From an uncultured Aliarcobacter sp. (lineage in GTDB: Bacteria > Campylobacterota > Campylobacteria > Campylobacterales > Arcobacteraceae): DNA of 64,000 bases. The stretch covers positions 608,001 to 672,000 of the forward strand of contig CAXXLV010000002.1 of the NCBI GenBank assembly GCA_963664305.2, in the 5' to 3' direction. The position numbers were made by a program. Positions 12,001-27,000 of the stretch are shown here, piece after piece (positions within the stretch are counted from its first letter, which is position 1; each line of letters starts with the position of its first letter).

Positions 12001-15000
12001 TGATTTGTAAAATAATGATAATAACACCAATTCCACACATAAAACCAGAAATTACTGGATAAGGGATATATTTTATCCATTTACCAATTCCTACTATTCC
12101 AAAAGATATTTGCATCAAACCAGCAAGGAAAACGATAGTCATAACAGTAGAAAAATCATTTGGAAAAGCTGCAATTGCAGATGCAAAAACAACGGTCATT
12201 GGTCCAGTTGGACCTGAAATTTGAGTTGGAGTTCCTCCAAATAAAGCAGCAAAAAAACCTAAAATTATAGCACCATATAATCCAGCAATTGCACCTGCTC
12301 CACTTGCAACACCAAAAGCTAAAGCTAATGGTAAAGCTACAACGGCAGCAGTTATTCCTGCAAAAATATCATTTTTAACTCTATTCAAGGAAAAACTCCT
12401 AAAAATTTATTTGTCTCTTTCTAAATACTCTTCATCACCCATTTTATCATTTTTACCACGTGCAATAACGTGAATTGGAGTTCCTTCAAAATTGAATTGT
12501 TCTCTTAAGAAGTTGATTAAATATCTTTTATACGTAAAGTGTAAAAGACTTGGTTTATTCATTACAAGAGCAATTCTAGGCGGTCTTGTACTAAATTGCG
12601 TTGCATAATAAATTCTTAAATAAGCACCATTTGGACTTGGAAGTGAATGTCTAATTACTGCTTCTTCAATTACTCTATTTAATTGAGAAGTTGGAATTCT
12701 TTGTGTATAGTTATTGAAAATTTCAATAATTTTATCTTTAAGTCTTTCTATACTTCTTCCCGTTTTTGCTGAAACTGCAATAATTGGAGCATAAGATAAA
12801 AATCTAAATCTTCTTCTGATTTCCTCTTCAATTTTTTGGAATGTATCCATATTTTCATCCCATTTATTTAAAACAATAATTGTTCCTAATCCATATTCAT
12901 CTACTAATCCAGCAATTTTTTCATCTAAATCAGTAAGTTCTCTTGAAGCATCTAAAACAACTAAAGCCATATTTGCTTTTTCTAACATCTCTTTAGTTCT
13001 CATTAAAGCATATTTTTCAATACCTTCAATACTTCCTCTTCTTCTTAATCCAGCTGTGTCAACGAAAGTAATTTGTTTTTCTTTAAATTCAAATGATTCA
13101 TCAACGGGGTCAATTGTAGTTCCAGCAATAGGAGAAACAACTGATCTTTCTTCTCCTAATATTGCATTTAATATTGAAGATTTCCCAACATTTACTCTTC
13201 CTATAATTGCAACATTGATTTTGTTTTCATCAATTTCAGCAACTTCTTCTTTAACAAAATCTTCATCTGATTCTAAAGAATAATCTTCTTCATCGTCAAA
13301 ATCAAAATTTTCTTCTCTCTCTTTTCTTAAAGCTTCTGCTTCTTCTCGGGCAACTGTTTCAAGATTAACAGGAAGATGTTGATAAATCCATTCAAATAAA
13401 TTTTTTGTTCCTCTATTATGAGAAACTGAGATTCCAAAAAGATTTTCATCTCCAATACCAAACTCAAAAAATTCCCAAAGTCTTTCTAATTCTTTATCAT
13501 TATCAATTTTATTTACAACTAGGGCTAATTCTTTCCCTAATCTTTGAAGCTCATAAAATAATTCTTTATCCTTATCATCTGGTATATTTTTACCATCAAC
13601 CATAAAAAGTATTATATCAGCCTCTTTTGCTGTTTCTATAGCTTTTCTTTTTACATTTGAAAAAATGGCATCATTAGTTTCATCGATACCACCAGTATCT
13701 AACATTAATGCTTTTCTATCCATAATTTCAATTTCATGTTTTCTAATATCTCTTGTAGTTCCAGCCATATCCGATACAATAGCAATTCTTTTATTTGCAA
13801 TTCTATTAAATAGTGATGATTTTCCTACGTTTGGTTGCCCTATTAGTGCAATCTTTTTTAGTGTTTTATCCATAAATATTTTAAATCCTAAGTTTTTTTG
13901 TTTTTTAAATAAAAAAAGGTATTAGCATTATAGCTAATACCTTCATTAAATAAAAGAGGTTTATATTAATATAATCCAAATTTACCAGCAACTGAACTTT
14001 TATATAAAACTCTCATATTATCATCTTTATCAATAAATACTTTGAATAAAGCGTCTGATGCCTTTAAATCTTCTAAAGCTTCTTCAATATCTATTGGTTT
14101 ATAAGATGTTAATCTTACAGGAGTAATTTCGTCTTCAAATTTCTCTAATTCTAATGCAATTTTATCTTGAATTTCATTAGCTTCAACTTCAGATAATTTA
14201 GTAGCTTTATGAGCTGCAATTTTATCATGATGTCTTCTTAATACTTTAGATACTCTATCAACTGCAATATCAATTGCAGCGTATAAATCTTTATCTTTTT
14301 GTTTTACAACAATAGTATCTAAATGAGCAATATTTAAAGTGAATTCAAAAGAGAAAGCTTTTTTACCATGTTTTTCATCTTGTGAAATAATTGAGTTTAC
14401 AGAAATAATATCTAAATTATATTTTTTAAACACTTCTACTGAGCTATTAATGTAATCTTTGATCGCATCTGTTAATTCTATGTGTCTTCCTACAATACTT
14501 GTATTCATAACATACTCCTTAATTATAATTTATTTATTCTAACATAAAAAACATAAAATGGGTAATATTCTCTATAAAATAACACTTGTATAACCTTGTA
14601 AATGGAGAGAAATTTTGATAATTTTTTGAATTCTTAACAAATTACGCTTAGAAAAGACTAAGCGTAATTAAATATAGAAGAATTTGAGTTTGAAAGGTTT
14701 TTAACGTAACTATTTAGTTCACTATTATTAGTTTGATTATTCATCATTTGCATAATATTTTTAAAGTTACTTAAATCTAAATTCTCTGAAGGATTTGAAC
14801 TATTAGATTTTATAGTATCAAGTAATAATTTTACAGTATCTTTTATAGTTGAATTATCAGCTGTTTCATTAGATATTCCTAATGCAGCATTTTTTTCTTC
14901 TTGAGATACAATACCATCTTTATTAGTATCAAGTTCATCATATTCTTCTTCATCAGTTGACGCTGCTGAACCACCACTTCCTCCACCTTTAGGTGGTGGC

Positions 15001-24000: not shown

Positions 24001-27000
24001 TTCATCATCTATTTTTATTTTTTTATAATTTGATGTTAATAAATCTTCAAAACTTTTCTCAGATAATCTCATATCAAATACTGAGATTTTATCATTTATC
24101 TCTTGTAATGATGCATTCTTCATATTTAAATCTTCTACAATTCTAACTGTTGACATATATCTTTTTACTTCTAATAAAGAGTAAGTTTTACTATCTACAA
24201 TAAATTGTATAGTTATAATAATATTAATAATTAAGAAAATAGAAAAGAAAAAAAGTTTAATTTGAAAAAATATAGAATCTTTTTTATTGATTAACCAATT
24301 TATAACCTACTCCTCTAATTGATAATATATATTTTGGTTTTTTTGTGTCTTCTTCTATTTTTGCTCTAACTCGACCAATTAAAACATCAATACTTTTATA
24401 TGAGCTTTCATATTTTATAGAATCAACATTAGAAAGTAATTCTTCTCTTGAAACAACAAAACCACCTTTTTGAATCATATATTGAAGTATAAAATACTCA
24501 GCATTTGTTAAATCAAGAAGTTCTTCATCTTTATATATTTCCATTTTAGATTCATCAAAAGTAAATATTTGTTTTTTATTTAAAGGAGATTCTTTTTCAA
24601 TAATTTGATGATTACATCTTTTTAAAATAGATTTTATTCTAAGTATTAATTCTTGTGTATCATATGGTTTTGGCATAAAATCATCAGCTCCATAAGAAAA
24701 ACAAGCAATTTTATCACCTAAATATGACCTTGCAGAAGAAATTATAATTGGTAAATCAAATTTTTGTCTAATTATTCTACAAACTTCTATGCCATCAATA
24801 TTTGGCAATGATAAATCTAATATTACTAAATCATATTTTTTTAAAGAAAGTGCAGATATTCCAAGCTCTGGAGTATCATAATTTGTAACAATTATGTTAT
24901 ATTGGCTTAGATATTCAGTTAAAATTCTAGCTAGTTCTGTATCATCTTCAATCATTAAAATATTAATCAAATTTTTACTCCTTATTTACTTTTTGAATTA
25001 TAGTATATCAATGTAAATAAAAAGTAACAATTTGTTAAATCAAGATTTCTCGATTTCCTTTGGCATTTACTTCTGATAAAATTCCAGTTTGTTCTAACTG
25101 TTCAACAATTGTTGCTGCTCTATTGTATCCAATTCTAAGTCTTCTTTGAATATATGAGATTGAAGTTTTTTTCTCTGTTAAAACAATCTCTTTTGCATCT
25201 TCATATAATTCATCAAGTTCAGCTAAATCTGAATTATTTGAATTTCCACCACTAGATGAAGAAACTCCTGAGTTTCTATCTTTTATAAAGTTCATATCAT
25301 AAGAAACTTCTCTTTGGTCTTTTAAAAACTCTACAACTTTTTCAATTTCAGATTCTGTCGACCAAGGCGCATGAATTCTCACTAGTCCAGACATTCCAGG
25401 AGGTGTAAATAACATATCTCCCCTTCCTAAAAGAGATTCAGCACCCATTGAATCTAAGATGATTTTAGAATCTATTTTTTGCCCTACTTTGTATGATAAT
25501 CTACTTGGTAAATTTGCTTTAATAAGTCCTGTAACAACATCAACGGATGGTCTTTGAGTTGCAACTATTAAGTGAATTCCAGAGGCTCTTGCCATTTGTG
25601 CAAGCCTTGCAATTGAATATTCAACATCTTTTCCACTTGTCATCATTAAATCTGCTAACTCATCAATTACAACAACTATATAAGGCATTGTTTCATAACC
25701 TTCATTTTTAGCTTTTTCATTGTAATTCTCAATGTTTTTTGTTTTTGTTTTTGACATTAATGTATAACGTCTTTCCATCTCACTAACCATATTTGCTAGT
25801 GCATTTATTGCATCACTTGCTTTTGTAATAACTGGAGTTAAAAGATGTGGAATATCGTTATACATTGAAAACTCAAGCATTTTTGGATCAATCATCACTA
25901 ATCTTAAATTATCTGGTGAATTTTTATAAAGTAAAGATAAAATCATTGAATTTATTCCAACTGATTTTCCTGAACCCGTTGTTCCAGCAATTAAAAGATG
26001 TGGAAGTTTTTTTAAATCTGTGATAAATGGTTTACCAACAATATCTTTTCCTAAAATCATTGTAAGTGGTGAAATAGAATTTTGGAAAATTTCACTTTCT
26101 AACATCTCTTTTAGATATATTGTTTGTGTATCTTCATTTGGAACTTCAATTCCCACAACATCTTTTCCAGGAATTGGAGCTTGAATTCTTATTGTTTGAG
26201 CTTTTAAAGCCATTGCTAAATCATCTTGAAGACTCAAAATTTTTGAAACTTTTACATTTGGTGCTGGTTTAAACTCAAAAGTTGTTACAACTGGACCTGT
26301 ATAAGTTCTTACAACATCACCTTCAATTTTAAACATTGCAAGCTTATCTAATAAATCTCCAATTTTTTGGTCAATAAAAGATTCTGAAACTTTTGATTTA
26401 TTATCTTTTGGAGGATTTTGAAAAAATGATGTTGGAGGTAATTCAAAATTTTTTGGTTTTTCTGTTTTACCTACTTCAATTTCTGCTAAAAGCTTTTTAT
26501 TTTCTTCCAACTCATCTACAATAATCCCATGAGATTCTACAACTTGAATATCTTTTTCAAAATCATCACTATCAAATAAAGAAGATTCATAAATATTTGT
26601 ATCTTTTATTTCTTCTATATTCTCATATATTTCTGGAGTTATAGTTGCAATATTTGTAGTAGTTTCCTGTTTTATCTCTTTAACTTCAGGAATAGTTTTA
26701 GTAAGTTTTTTATCTATACTCTTTAAAACCTCTTTAGTTGTCTCTTCAACTCTTTTTTCTCTTCGTTTATTTTCAATTCTTTTAATATCTAAACTATTTT
26801 TTAATTTAATTTTATTCTTTAATTTTTTTAAATCTTCAATATCAAAATCTGAATTTTCAAATAAAACTAAAAATGAGATAATAAATCCAACTAAAACAAA
26901 GAAATAAAGTCCAGCACGTCCAATCACTGGGCTTAAAGAATCAACTAAAATATTTCCAATTTCTCCTCTTGAATAAGGATTTTCAATAACTAAAGCTTGG

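Follow-up and report, generated by a model that had tools for sequence, protein, structure and literature searches.

A second set of flagellar hook, junction and cap genes beside a two-component system and a single basal body in an uncultured Aliarcobacter sp.

The 64,000-nucleotide stretch of Aliarcobacter DNA analysed here (hereafter the window) carries a cassette that most probably (at a rough probability of 0.7) would allow one motor and export apparatus to build alternative external parts (FlgD2, FlgE2, FlgK2/FlgL2 and FliD2) with the same flagellins. The cassette occupies positions 14658-24970 on the minus strand and encodes, in this order, an OmpR-type regulator, an ArsS-family kinase, FlgD2, FlgE2, FlgL2, a 126-aa protein, FlgK2, FliD2 and an EF-hand protein (Table 1). 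Judged by sequence, the five structural genes are full-length paralogues of the standard set (set 1) under purifying selection, and the genome has single copies of the genes for export gate, ATPase, rotor, rod, rings, FliK and chaperones, which would serve both sets.

Table 1. Cassette features in window coordinates, in the direction of transcription.
Feature	Position	Strand	Support
Putative promoter of the response regulator-kinase operon: box TTACTTTTTATTTAC, 10 nt, TATAAT	25013..25027	-	Box in 21/24 orthologous loci
Response regulator, OmpR/PhoB-type, 228 aa	24284..24970	-	Pfam Response_reg and Trans_reg_C
Sensor histidine kinase, ArsS-family	22981..24291	-	NCBIfam NF038389, 340.8 bits (cut-off 250)
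Putative flgD2 promoter: tandem boxes TTACCTTTTATTTAC and ATACCCTATATTTAC; from the proximal one 10 nt, TAGAAT	22945..22980	-	Box in 17/25 loci
flgD2, hook cap, 250 aa	22146..22898	-	Pfam FlgD (N-terminal domain) above cut-off; AF2 model, mean pLDDT 77.6
Hairpin, 15-bp stem, terminator-like, overlapping the flgD2 stop codon	22123..22155	-	-15.4 kcal/mol, z -4.5
Putative flgE2 operon promoter: box ATACCCTAAATTTAC, 10 nt, TATGAT	22086..22100	-	Box in 18/24 loci
flgE2, hook protein, 656 aa	20060..22030	-	Pfam Flg_bb_rod, Flg_bbr_C and LlgE_F_G_D1 above cut-off; NCBIfam; 49.5% identical to FlgE1
flgL2, hook-filament junction protein, 377 aa	18913..20046	-	Pfam Flagellin_N above cut-off; TIGR02550 below cut-off; 34.6% identical to FlgL1
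Mini-FlgD (truncated FlgD paralogue), 122-126 aa	18525..18905	-	hhalign, profile search, fold match
flgK2, hook-filament junction protein, 532 aa	16917..18515	-	TIGR02492 (flgK_ends) 258 bits, above cut-off; Pfam FlgK_D1 above cut-off
fliD2, filament cap, 445 aa	15569..16906	-	Pfam FliD_N and FliD_C above cut-off; in cassette clade of FliD tree
Putative EF-hand gene promoter: box TTACCCATTATTTAC, 10 nt, TAGGAT	15546..15560	-	Box in 16/16 loci
Acidic EF-hand calcium-binding protein, 283 aa	14658..15509	-	Pfam EF-hand families
Hairpin, 12-bp stem, at the EF-hand gene stop and cassette end	14640..14669	-	-18.5 kcal/mol, z -2.8

The open reading frames and their Pfam and NCBIfam labels (response regulator, histidine kinase, FlgD, FlgE, FlgL, FlgK, FliD and EF-hand) agree with the second hook, junction and cap set that a preliminary description had placed at this locus, although the FlgL and epsilon-FlgE equivalog models scored under their cut-offs. 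The canonical ATG of the kinase gene at 24156 yields 391 aa without the first membrane helix, and this genome holds no canonical start codon that would take that helix in; by homology, translation probably starts at an ATC at 24291, overlapping the regulator's stop codon. The regulator is 74-95% identical across orthologous cassettes at the site described below. None of 200 shuffles folded as well as the hairpin at the flgD2 stop. Across all nine genes, dN/dS was 0.00-0.26 (two genome pairs), indicative of purifying selection. The RNA data are limited to relatives, in which metatranscriptome contigs from a single wastewater sample, possibly including DNA, span parts of the cassette.

Paralogue identities were obtained by tblastn on the whole genome with a reciprocal check. 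The values put forward earlier as (nearly) full length were recovered for FlgE2/FlgE1 (49.5% over 709 columns), FliD2/FliD1 (43.4%), FlgK2/FlgK1 (35.7%) and FlgL2/FlgL1 (34.6%), but the 40% between FlgD2 and FlgD1 is confined to the N-terminal 140 residues. When 31 core flagellar proteins were used as queries, the module was matched solely by FlgD1, FlgE1, FlgL1, FlgK1, FliD1 and a 489-aa FlgE-like protein whose gene stands beside flgE1 in set 1. Two more paralogues emerged, an additional MotAB pair (26%) and an FlhB-C-like piece of 86 aa (51%). The genome contains one Pfam match to FHIPEP and one each of FliK, FlgN and the rod; with FliP outside the query set, tblastn found no second full copy of FlhA, FlhB, FliR, FliQ, FliF, FliG, FliM/N, FliH, FliI, FlgB, FlgC, FliE, FlgH or FlgI. 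These counts, which cover the genome outside positions 80001-88000 of contig C1 (8000 bases read as N), bear out the single copies of export gate, rotor and ring genes reported before, together with the two stator pairs and the extra FlhB-C-like piece. Within that coverage, a secondary (dual) flagellar system is not supported: second export gate, MS/C ring or rod genes and a flagellin of its own were not found.

Neither the cassette nor its flanks contain a flagellin gene. Both the genome's three flagellins and a 267-aa flagellin-like gene also occur in genomes devoid of the cassette, which on sequence grounds has no specific flagellin.

A FliD2-type copy at 57-95% identity is present in 25 of 183 other family genomes, the next best match being at 51%; the restriction of the module to a minority of Arcobacteraceae was thereby reproduced. 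The 57% orthologue cut undercounts, because G179 and G183 (another genus) carry a rearranged cassette at 49-59%. The cassette lies at the same site between FtsK and HPF in 25 relatives belonging to five genera and is rearranged in two more. FtsK is upstream in 24/24 loci with that side in view, and HPF downstream in 23/26. The 28 carriers comprise 20 two-set and 8 one-set genomes. Their cassette copies form one group in the FliD tree (SH-aLRT 97), with the three one-set genomes of the window's genus nesting next to this genome. All five structural partners were duplicated together and are inherited as a block.

The cassette is the sole hook, junction and cap set in 8/28 carriers. Seven such genomes encode FHIPEP: G029, G084, G103, G105 and G088, with one FliD, one FlgK and one FlgL each, and G037 and G183, with one FliD and one FlgK each. 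G029, G103 and G105 have no hook protein other than the cassette FlgE, and G084 has an additional 989-aa FlgE. The main flagellar clusters of G105 and G029, the two inspected, are collinear with that of this genome minus flgL1 and flgD1-flgE489-flgE1 only. The first loss leaves a gap of 115/130 bp between flhA and fliI (G105/G029) and the second a gap of 54/131 bp between fliN and the next gene, so that both clusters have lost the set-1 genes cleanly, with synteny preserved in all other respects. Since these relatives have the same core genes, the cassette would be sufficient with that core. Its earlier designation as accessory is thus only half right: it is found in a minority of family genomes, but it has replaced set 1 in some lineages. 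In the tables consulted (S8 and S2), Arcobacter anaerophilus, a flagellated and motile species, has only cassette-type genes and a 989-aa FlgE (PMC9321776).

The protein between FlgL2 and FlgK2, described at first as a 124-aa unknown, turned out to be a truncated FlgD paralogue, here called mini-FlgD. It is predicted to consist of two helices and the Tudor-like barrel of FlgD and to lack both the N-terminal region and the inserted domain of that protein. Alignment with FlgD by hhalign (probability 97.2%, E 4e-11) pairs residues 41-111 with FlgD2 77-142, and the helix and strand order agrees with that of the FlgD2 model. A mini-FlgD profile search retrieves true FlgD proteins, 8 of the 13 distant matches scanned having PF03963 right before the matched stretch. 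By fold it comes closest to the FlgD hook cap 7bhq_A (Z 7.1, with an rmsd of 1.7 across 62 residues), and 3c12, 7eh9 and 4zzf matched as well. PF03963, the FlgD N-terminal region, was detected in none of 18 mini-FlgD members, even at E up to 10. The gene evolves at dN/dS 0.00 and 0.05 in two genome pairs. It is kept in 20/20 two-set genomes and lost in 7/8 one-set genomes (the exception is G183), an association that amounts to only 2-3 independent losses.

A box, WTAC-N6-TTTAC, recurs in four cassette promoters, each time exactly 10 nt ahead of the -10 hexamer. Genome-wide, 17 boxes are placed as in a promoter, of which 5 are in the cassette; a box with the hexamer at +10 occurs at 6 sites, 4 of them in the cassette, against some 2.4 expected by chance. 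Seven control genes have the box in 0-1 of 20-27 orthologous loci, and the genome-wide search found none before set-1 genes or flagellins. The transcription units preceded by the box are the regulator-kinase pair, flgD2, flgE2-flgL2-mini-flgD-flgK2-fliD2 and the EF-hand gene. In PhoB/OmpR-type class II promoters, the Pho box consists of direct repeats with a spacing of about 11 bp that substitute for the -35 element and stop 10 nt short of the -10 hexamer. The cassette boxes have the same layout, at a constant distance from the -10. They are kept in orthologues, the gene of the regulator itself is among those they precede, and the four units share one conserved box placed like a Pho box. We know of no described box that the sequence itself matches. 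Position and conservation point to putative regulator-dependent promoters to which the response regulator would bind, with autoregulation of its own operon. The separate control of the second set, proposed earlier, is supported by this cassette-specific box. In the ArsRS system of Helicobacter pylori, ArsS is an acid sensor; the cassette kinase scores above the ArsS-family cut-off, and acid sensing by its periplasmic domain would be an analogous role. G003 combines the two-component system with the EF-hand gene, the latter preceded by its box, at a locus devoid of flagellar genes, and the EF-hand gene is found in G013 as well. The EF-hand gene may therefore have been the original target of the two-component system.

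Every cassette protein is lower in lysine and arginine than its set-1 counterpart (2.4-5.6% in set 2 vs 6.6-10.5% in set 1); in addition, the acidity of FliD2 is much higher than that of FliD1. In within-genome FliD pairs, the cassette copy has the lower Lys+Arg and the higher Asp+Glu content in 16/16. The EF-hand protein, with 4.2% Lys+Arg and no cysteine, resembles the exported cassette proteins in composition; no Sec signal peptide was evident by eye. Its likeness to XopAW, a type III secreted calcium-binding effector (NF041410), is confined to the EF-hand loops and falls short of the family cut-off (77.1 bits vs 120), and the Atlas puts the protein among generic bacterial EF-hand clusters.

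Taken together, alternative external parts on one motor would be deployed as follows. The adjacent OmpR-type regulator would bind the box and turn the cassette on once the ArsS-family kinase senses its signal. The latter may be ionic (salt, Ca2+ or pH), because the cassette proteins are poor in Lys+Arg, FliD2 is strongly acidic relative to FliD1 and the last gene of the cassette encodes a calcium-binding protein. The truncated FlgD would stay in the cytoplasm and help to manage the two sets side by side. With shared flagellins, this scheme would not in itself call for a second FliD. A bolder version, tentative and somewhat doubtful, makes of the cassette an exchangeable 'distal drive-train', matched in its parts, equipped with its own two-component switch and fitted to one motor when ionic conditions change, e.g. 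in moves between sewage or fresh water on one side and sea water or shellfish on the other. The Lys/Arg-poor proteins would then be the high-salt/Ca version, and the truncated FlgD a selector against mixing of the sets that could, for instance, block the set-1 hook cap. If true, this would be the first case of a condition-dependent swap of the flagellar universal joint, and Arcobacteraceae would gain their first known transcriptional regulator acting on flagellar structural genes.

Complete dual flagellar systems have the export gate, rotor, rod, rings, stators and flagellins all duplicated. Those of Vibrio (polar and lateral), Rhodobacter sphaeroides (fla1/fla2) and Bradyrhizobium likewise have second flgD/E/K/L and fliD genes under their own regulator, and names such as flgE2 or flgK2 are used, in the papers found, for complete dual systems. 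These duplicate the whole machine, whereas the cassette duplicates five external non-filament parts on one basal body. More than one FlgE-family gene with one basal body is also seen in other Campylobacterota, H. pylori and two other Helicobacter species having two FlgE entries each in Table S8 of Mo et al. 2022 (PMC9321776); those are single extra genes, unlike the matched set here, which spans FlgD2, FlgE2, FlgK2, FlgL2 and FliD2 and has its own regulator. The rpoE6 cluster of Azospirillum brasilense (FlgK, FlgL, FliD, FliS, FliC2 and an ECF sigma factor), as far as the sections consulted go, is likewise a partial cluster (hook-associated and cap genes) that has its own regulator and modifies a single polar flagellum, but a minor flagellin and FliS belong to it, FlgD and FlgE do not, and control is by a sigma/anti-sigma pair (PMC12826043). 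The same Table S8 lists FlgD-2, FlgE-3, FlgK-2, FlgL-2 and FliD-2 in Arcobacter ellisii and Arcobacter sp. L, with the protein lengths of the cassette (250/656/532/377/445-446 aa). The copies are tabulated without comment; the main text, in the portions available, contains no mention of ellisii, anaerophilus, 'two sets' or 'second flagellar' and states that flagellar loci have no DNA-binding regulator in or near them (PMC9321776). The A. butzleri genome paper, as had been noted, describes three flagellar clusters, with no occurrence of flgE or fliD in the text available. New here are the FtsK|HPF site in five genera, the replacement of set 1, the promoter box, the identity of mini-FlgD and the composition shift.

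Both sets might be made together and co-polymerise into mixed hooks, junctions and caps, the cassette adding dosage or robustness. FlgE1 and FlgE2 are indeed well conserved at the termini, which build the inner tube (65-85% identity per 40-column window), and share one FliK, one FlgN and one rod, with no flagellin specific to either set. Such mixing is nonetheless unlikely: the box and regulator of the cassette are missing from set-1 genes and flagellins, and five interacting partners were duplicated as a block, all with the same composition shift. The divergence of the two hook proteins is centred on the middle, outward-facing part (15-52% per window), as would be expected if the cassette varied the exposed hook, junction and cap surface against phages, grazers or hosts with no ionic adaptation. 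FliD1 is unusually variable among close relatives (77% amino-acid identity to G011, flanking proteins 96-100%). What makes this explanation distinctly unlikely is the conservation of the cassette copies towards the same genome (FliD2 95%, FlgE2 96%; dN/dS 0.06-0.13 for the five structural genes) and the uniform Lys/Arg loss, in five proteins and all FliD pairs, which looks physicochemical.

It is very improbable that the cassette forms a capped hook stub through which the EF-hand protein is secreted and that does not serve swimming. That gene does share the box and close the cassette, and its product, with the composition of an exported protein and no Sec signal by eye, has a type III secreted effector family as best named match, under its cut-off. 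Against this, the gene is absent beside the cassette in 4/20 two-set and 5/8 one-set genomes, FlgL and FliD are needed only for filament start and growth, and the cassette is the sole set in a species recorded as motile in the tables consulted (PMC9321776). The notion that an earlier second flagellar system left the cassette behind as a decaying relic, suggested by the lack of basal-body genes and by a visibly degraded copy in G001, is contradicted by nine intact genes at low dN/dS, by order, site and promoter boxes conserved across five genera, and by seven genomes with FlhA in which the cassette is the sole set. In G001, a complete genome devoid of FHIPEP, FlgE is split and the kinase, mini-FlgD and EF-hand genes are gone; such decay was observed only there, where FlhA is absent.

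Flagellar hooks, junctions and caps are usually regarded as fixed single-copy parts and, to our knowledge, the known "second flagella" are duplications of the entire machine. In Arcobacteraceae the core motor genes occur with the standard set only (set 1: FlgD1, FlgE1, FlgL1, FlgK1 and FliD1), with both sets, or only with the cassette that encodes set 2. This natural swap experiment by evolution shows that the five parts would form an exchangeable co-adapted unit. The bare existence of the gene copies is not new, since they are already in a public table: in the accessible parts, Mo et al. 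(2022; PMC9321776) tabulate such copies for both A. ellisii and Arcobacter sp. L and leave them undiscussed in the main text, where ellisii, anaerophilus, "two sets" and "second flagellar" have 0 matches. The A. butzleri genome paper, in the portion available, lists three flagellar clusters and mentions neither flgE nor fliD (Miller et al. 2007; PMC2147049), as the preliminary description had it. In openly accessible full texts, the figures of PMC9321776 aside, no paper was found that treats a partial second set in Arcobacteraceae. The nearest systems described, in the accessible parts of their sources, are complete dual flagellar systems and the Azospirillum rpoE6 cluster. New as far as our searches reach are the conserved site of the cassette, the natural replacement of set 1 by it, a cassette-specific promoter box with its regulator (a putative pairing), a truncated FlgD and a uniform composition shift.

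The cassette comprises nine ORFs and is flanked by housekeeping genes assigned with Pfam: lpxD and ftsK upstream; hpf, der and a SulP permease gene downstream.

Coordinates and properties of the cassette and associated features (G000, this genome; other G numbers, further Arcobacteraceae genomes; C, contigs; L, fetched loci)
Feature	Coordinates	Strand	Size or type	Basis or remark
Cassette, nine ORFs	window 24970 to 14658	-		
Response regulator		-	OmpR-type	Pfam
Histidine kinase		-	ArsS family	NF038389, 340.8 bits vs cut-off 250
FlgD2		-	250 aa	
FlgE2		-	656 aa	
FlgL2		-	377 aa	
Mini-FlgD ORF		-	126 aa	
FlgK2		-	532 aa	
FliD2		-	445 aa	
EF-hand protein		-	283 aa	
Kinase frame	window 24157-24310	-		open upstream of ATG only up to TAG
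Flagellin-like ORF	window 30642-31445	+	267 aa	weak Flagellin N-/C-terminal matches, below curated cut-offs
FlgE-like gene of set 1	L003 10665-12134 (G000:C1:256665-258134)		489 aa	between flgD1 and flgE1
FliD1 gene	L005 10518-11864 (G000:C2:1722518-1723864)			compared with L096 (G011)
Second MotAB pair and FlhB-C-like fragment	G000:C2:858487-859770 and C2:919736-919990			
Decayed cassette of G001	L041 (G001:C1:1550876-1570813)			
RR-HK-EF-hand beside ftsK in G003	L137 (G003:C1:1159000-1176000) 7170-10096			followed by 7TMR-DISM histidine kinase

Identity (tblastn) and lysine plus arginine content (K+R) of the paired proteins
Protein	Identity, set 2/set 1	K+R, set 2	K+R, set 1
FlgD	40%, first 140 residues only	2.4%	6.6%
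FlgE	49.5%	5.0%	7.9%
FlgL	34.6%	5.6%	9.8%
FlgK	35.7%	4.1%	10.5%
FliD	43.4%	4.9%	8.7%

Copy number was examined by tblastn of the cassette proteins against the whole 2.78-Mb assembly, which reproduced the paralogue identities previously given for FlgE2, FliD2, FlgK2 and FlgL2; the value for FlgD2 also stood, but not the nearly full-length extent claimed for it. In the reverse direction, two standard flagellar regions were annotated with Pfam and 31 of their proteins, FliP being left out, were searched against the genome. Only FlgD1, a 489-aa FlgE-like protein, FlgE1, FlgL1, FlgK1 and FliD1 found partners in the cassette. Over the genome minus 8 kb (contig C1, 80001-88000), no second full copy was detected of FlhA, FliI, FlhB, FliR, FliQ, FliK, FliE, FlgB, FlgC, a 239-aa FlgF/G-type rod protein, FliF, FliG, FliM/N, FliH, FlgH, FlgI, FliL, FliS, FlhF or FlhG. 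FliI, FlhF and FlhG gave weak matches only (24-30% identity), which are taken to be other P-loop NTPases, and the FlhA family (FHIPEP) has one Pfam match in the genome. The core is thus single-copy among the genes queried, as had been proposed. Also confirmed were another MotAB pair, which shares 26% identity with the in-cluster one, and an 86-residue FlhB-C-like piece. In table S8 of PMC9321776, a gene of the latter kind (FlhX) is listed in 14/14 Arcobacter rows examined. In that table only the two Arcobacter species carrying both hook sets have two stator pairs listed.

In several genomes the cassette is the only set. FliD, FlgK and FlgL are single-copy in five carriers (G029, G084, G103, G105, G088), as are FliD and FlgK in G037 and G183; FHIPEP is present in all seven. 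The cassette FlgE is the sole hook protein in G029, G103 and G105, and G084 has an additional 989-aa FlgE (G088 was outside the FlgE search). The main flagellar clusters of G105 (genus group g10) and G029 (g1) are gene-for-gene collinear with that of this genome, with two exceptions: flgL1 is absent between flhA and fliI, where a 115- or 130-bp gap remains, and flgD1-flgE489-flgE1 is absent between fliN and the next gene, leaving 54 or 131 bp. According to the rows examined in tables S8 and S2 of PMC9321776, Arcobacter anaerophilus has only cassette-type genes (252/676/375/535/447 aa) plus a 989-aa FlgE, and is recorded as flagellated and motile; the tabulated lengths are those found in G084. 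With FHIPEP retained, the two inspected main clusters collinear and A. anaerophilus motile, the cassette would suffice when combined with the shared core. In G001, a complete genome of this genus that lacks FHIPEP, the cassette has foreign ORFs inserted (454, 396, 187 and 132 aa), FlgE and the regulator gene split, and the kinase, mini-FlgD and EF-hand genes absent; FlgK is split too. Such decay, with the export apparatus gone, fits a dependence of the cassette on that apparatus. The earlier interpretation of a second hook-junction-cap set on one basal body is upheld by the single-copy core and by the cassette-only genomes.

The site of the cassette is conserved. When 184 genomes of the family were searched with FliD2, the 25 relatives described earlier again had a copy at 57-95% identity, the next best match being at 51%. 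The cut at 57%, chosen by eye, does not give a complete carrier count: in G179 and G183, from a sixth genus group (g22), these genes are rearranged and the regulator pair is divergent, at 49-59% identity, and therefore the cut undercounts. As long FliD proteins split into two matches, match counts alone could not be used for counting sets, and one-set and two-set assignments were therefore verified by Pfam searches or fetched ORFs. For the 25 relatives, which span five genus groups (g1, g3, g10, g19, g21), 26 loci were fetched, G022 contributing two contigs. ftsK-lpxD lies upstream in 24/24 loci with that side in view, and hpf downstream in 23/26, with different genes there in three g10 genomes. 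In five cassette-less genomes (G002, G006, G010, G086, G155) ftsK directly abuts hpf, without the regulator pair. The G003 site holds regulator, kinase and EF-hand genes and zero flagellar genes; the regulator pair and the EF-hand gene are therefore a unit of their own. The EF-hand gene is present in G013 too. In G022 the entire cassette and its flanks lie on both C8 and C11 (L039, L040) with identical scores, reflecting a real large duplication or else a duplicate produced in assembly.

In a FliD tree (74 rows, quick IQ-TREE, SH-aLRT support only), 28/28 cassette copies form one group (support 97) inside the family diversity, adjoining the ordinary FliD of genus g7. This placement suggests that the cassette would have originated within Arcobacteraceae rather than by import from another phylum, in a tree whose root is uncertain, one outgroup row being very long and placed inside the ingroup. 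The g1 one-set trio (G029, G037, G001) is nested beside the two-set genomes G000 and G011 (support 91), and the loss of set 1 is therefore derived in g1. The nine cassette genes have dN/dS values of 0.00-0.23 between this genome and G011 and of 0.05-0.26 between G033 and G042. FliD1 is constrained as well (0.15-0.27), yet diverges faster than FliD2: amino-acid identity between this genome and G011 is 77% for FliD1 and 95% for FliD2. With a FliD1 dN of 0.151 and flanking housekeeping proteins at 96-100%, the locus of the standard cap thus varies to an unusual degree among closely related genomes.

The ORF of the operon formerly described as an unknown of 124 aa is present, as 126 aa, and is a truncated FlgD (mini-FlgD). 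Its family has 156 members in a large protein collection; the 120 listed bear "hypothetical" or uninformative names, and the named organisms are all Arcobacteraceae. Its profile matches the FlgD2 plus FlgD1 alignment with a probability of 97.2% (E 4e-11), residues 41-111 corresponding to FlgD2 77-142. A search of 1.84 billion representatives gave 32 proteins at E <= 0.001, and the Pfam FlgD N-terminal domain directly precedes the matched stretch in 8/13 distant hits scanned. In its AF2 model (mean pLDDT 82.4), two helices accompany a barrel of four strands. Foldseek gave no match in the PDB at E <= 0.001; the top match of an exhaustive aligner is the Salmonella FlgD hook cap 7bhq_A (Z 7.1, rmsd 1.7 Å, 62 residues), a match that is weak by itself since Z values of ~7 are common, and three further FlgD structures are among the top 19. 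The helix-then-strands order recurs in the FlgD2 model, where an inserted domain (~residues 143-225), absent from mini-FlgD, comes next, and both proteins end in K-(R/K)-I-Y or T-K-I-Y. The FlgD N-terminal region was matched in 0/18 members, and Pfam gave weak DUF7488 matches only (5/18). An Atlas lead to a WYL domain was dropped, its score of 0.84 lying in the chance range. Mini-FlgD is the most constrained cassette gene (dN/dS 0.000 and 0.053), and, in contrast to the exported cassette proteins, it resembles a cytoplasmic protein in composition (K+R 11.9%, two Cys). It occurs in 20/20 two-set carriers and in 1/8 one-set carriers (G183), a pattern comprising two or three independent losses only and thus a lead, not a statistic. 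As a small flagellar protein the truncated FlgD is new, and no counterpart of it is known to have been described. Set 1 includes the 489-aa FlgE-like gene and the cassette mini-FlgD, thus one extra member per set; the former vanishes along with set 1 in one-set genomes.

All five set 2 proteins are poorer in lysine and arginine than their set 1 partners. D+E amounts to 20.4% in FliD2 versus 13.4% in FliD1, and the cassette FliD has lower K+R and higher D+E in 16/16 genomes compared that have both types. The EF-hand protein has the same make-up (K+R 4.2%, no Cys). On the sole basis of this systematic shift, the signal to which the cassette responds may be ionic.

The three flagellins previously counted exist (two tandem of 292 aa, one of 275 aa), and a weak flagellin-like ORF of 267 aa had gone uncounted. 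The latter, 5.7 kb upstream of the cassette, was rejected as cassette-specific, being present in 155/184 family genomes, FlhA-less G001 among them. The 275-aa flagellin was rejected likewise, with orthologues at >=67% in 25 other same-genus genomes, cassette-less ones included. One-set genomes have three or four flagellins too, and no flagellin was found to be tied to the cassette in the family-genome searches. The same filament is presumably carried by both sets, and a shared filament does not account for a second FliD. In a wastewater metatranscriptome (one sample, runs X11 and X13), contigs 92-99% alike span portions of flgE2, flgD2 and flgL2, together with part of the regulator gene and of the fliD2/EF-hand junction, their depth being similar to that over ftsK; as contigs of relatives, possibly from DNA, they give a weak hint of transcription. 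From cassette stretches without contig cover in X11, X13, X1 and X7 no conclusion was drawn.

How flagellar genes are regulated in Arcobacter is recognized as unsettled. RpoN, FliA and FlgSR are missing, and PMC2147049, in the portion available, suggests "a completely novel system"; the accessible parts of PMC9321776 report no regulator near flagellar loci. With the cassette come a specific regulator, a candidate site for its binding and four putative target promoters, all open to direct testing. Alignment of upstream regions of orthologous loci revealed a WTAC-N6-TTTAC box before the regulator gene (21/24 loci), flgD2 (17/25, two tandem copies in this genome), flgE2 (18/24) and the EF-hand gene (16/16). 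Control regions upstream of flgL2, flgK2, hk, hpf, ftsK and der had it in 0 of 20-25 loci each, and that of fliD2 in 1/27. A TAnnAT hexamer lies exactly 10 nt past the box at 4/4 promoters in this genome (TATAAT, TAGAAT, TATGAT, TAGGAT). We take this layout to be that of a class II OmpR/PhoB-type activator site, and the neighbouring regulator would bind it. The loose box occurs 132 times genome-wide; 17 occurrences are promoter-placed (<=200 nt upstream of a same-strand ORF, outside genes), and the cassette accounts for 5/17. Six boxes have the -10 hexamer at +10, 4/6 in the cassette (~2.4 expected by chance among 132). No box of either kind was found genome-wide before a flagellin gene, the second motAB pair or a set 1 gene. 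Boxes before priA, adk and small ORFs, without the hexamer at +10, were attributed to chance. In this AT-rich DNA, scanning for sigma-70 and terminator consensus sequences gave no useful signal, with 91 promoter-like sites versus 82.6 expected. One hairpin lies after flgD2 (z -4.5) and another after the EF-hand gene (z -2.8). In G003 the box precedes both the regulator gene and the EF-hand gene.

By eye, the flgE promoter of four g10 genomes has no clear box and a consensus-like -10 instead, although the strict count still places a box within range in G084; the flgD promoter of g10 one-set genomes retains it. The pattern would fit a shift to constitutive hook expression after the cassette was left as the only set. 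In the g10 one-set genomes G103, G084, G105 and G088 (L056, L059, L060, L061) the flgE -10 is TATAAT, with an upstream TG in G084. G029 has lost the kinase and kept the regulator. In this genome the canonical ATG of the kinase would leave out its first membrane helix, and by homology translation probably starts at an ATC that overlaps the regulator stop codon. The TAG in the kinase frame, which G003 shares, arises from a synonymous GTA codon in the regulator gene overlapping it; at this position TTG stands in G011 and G033.
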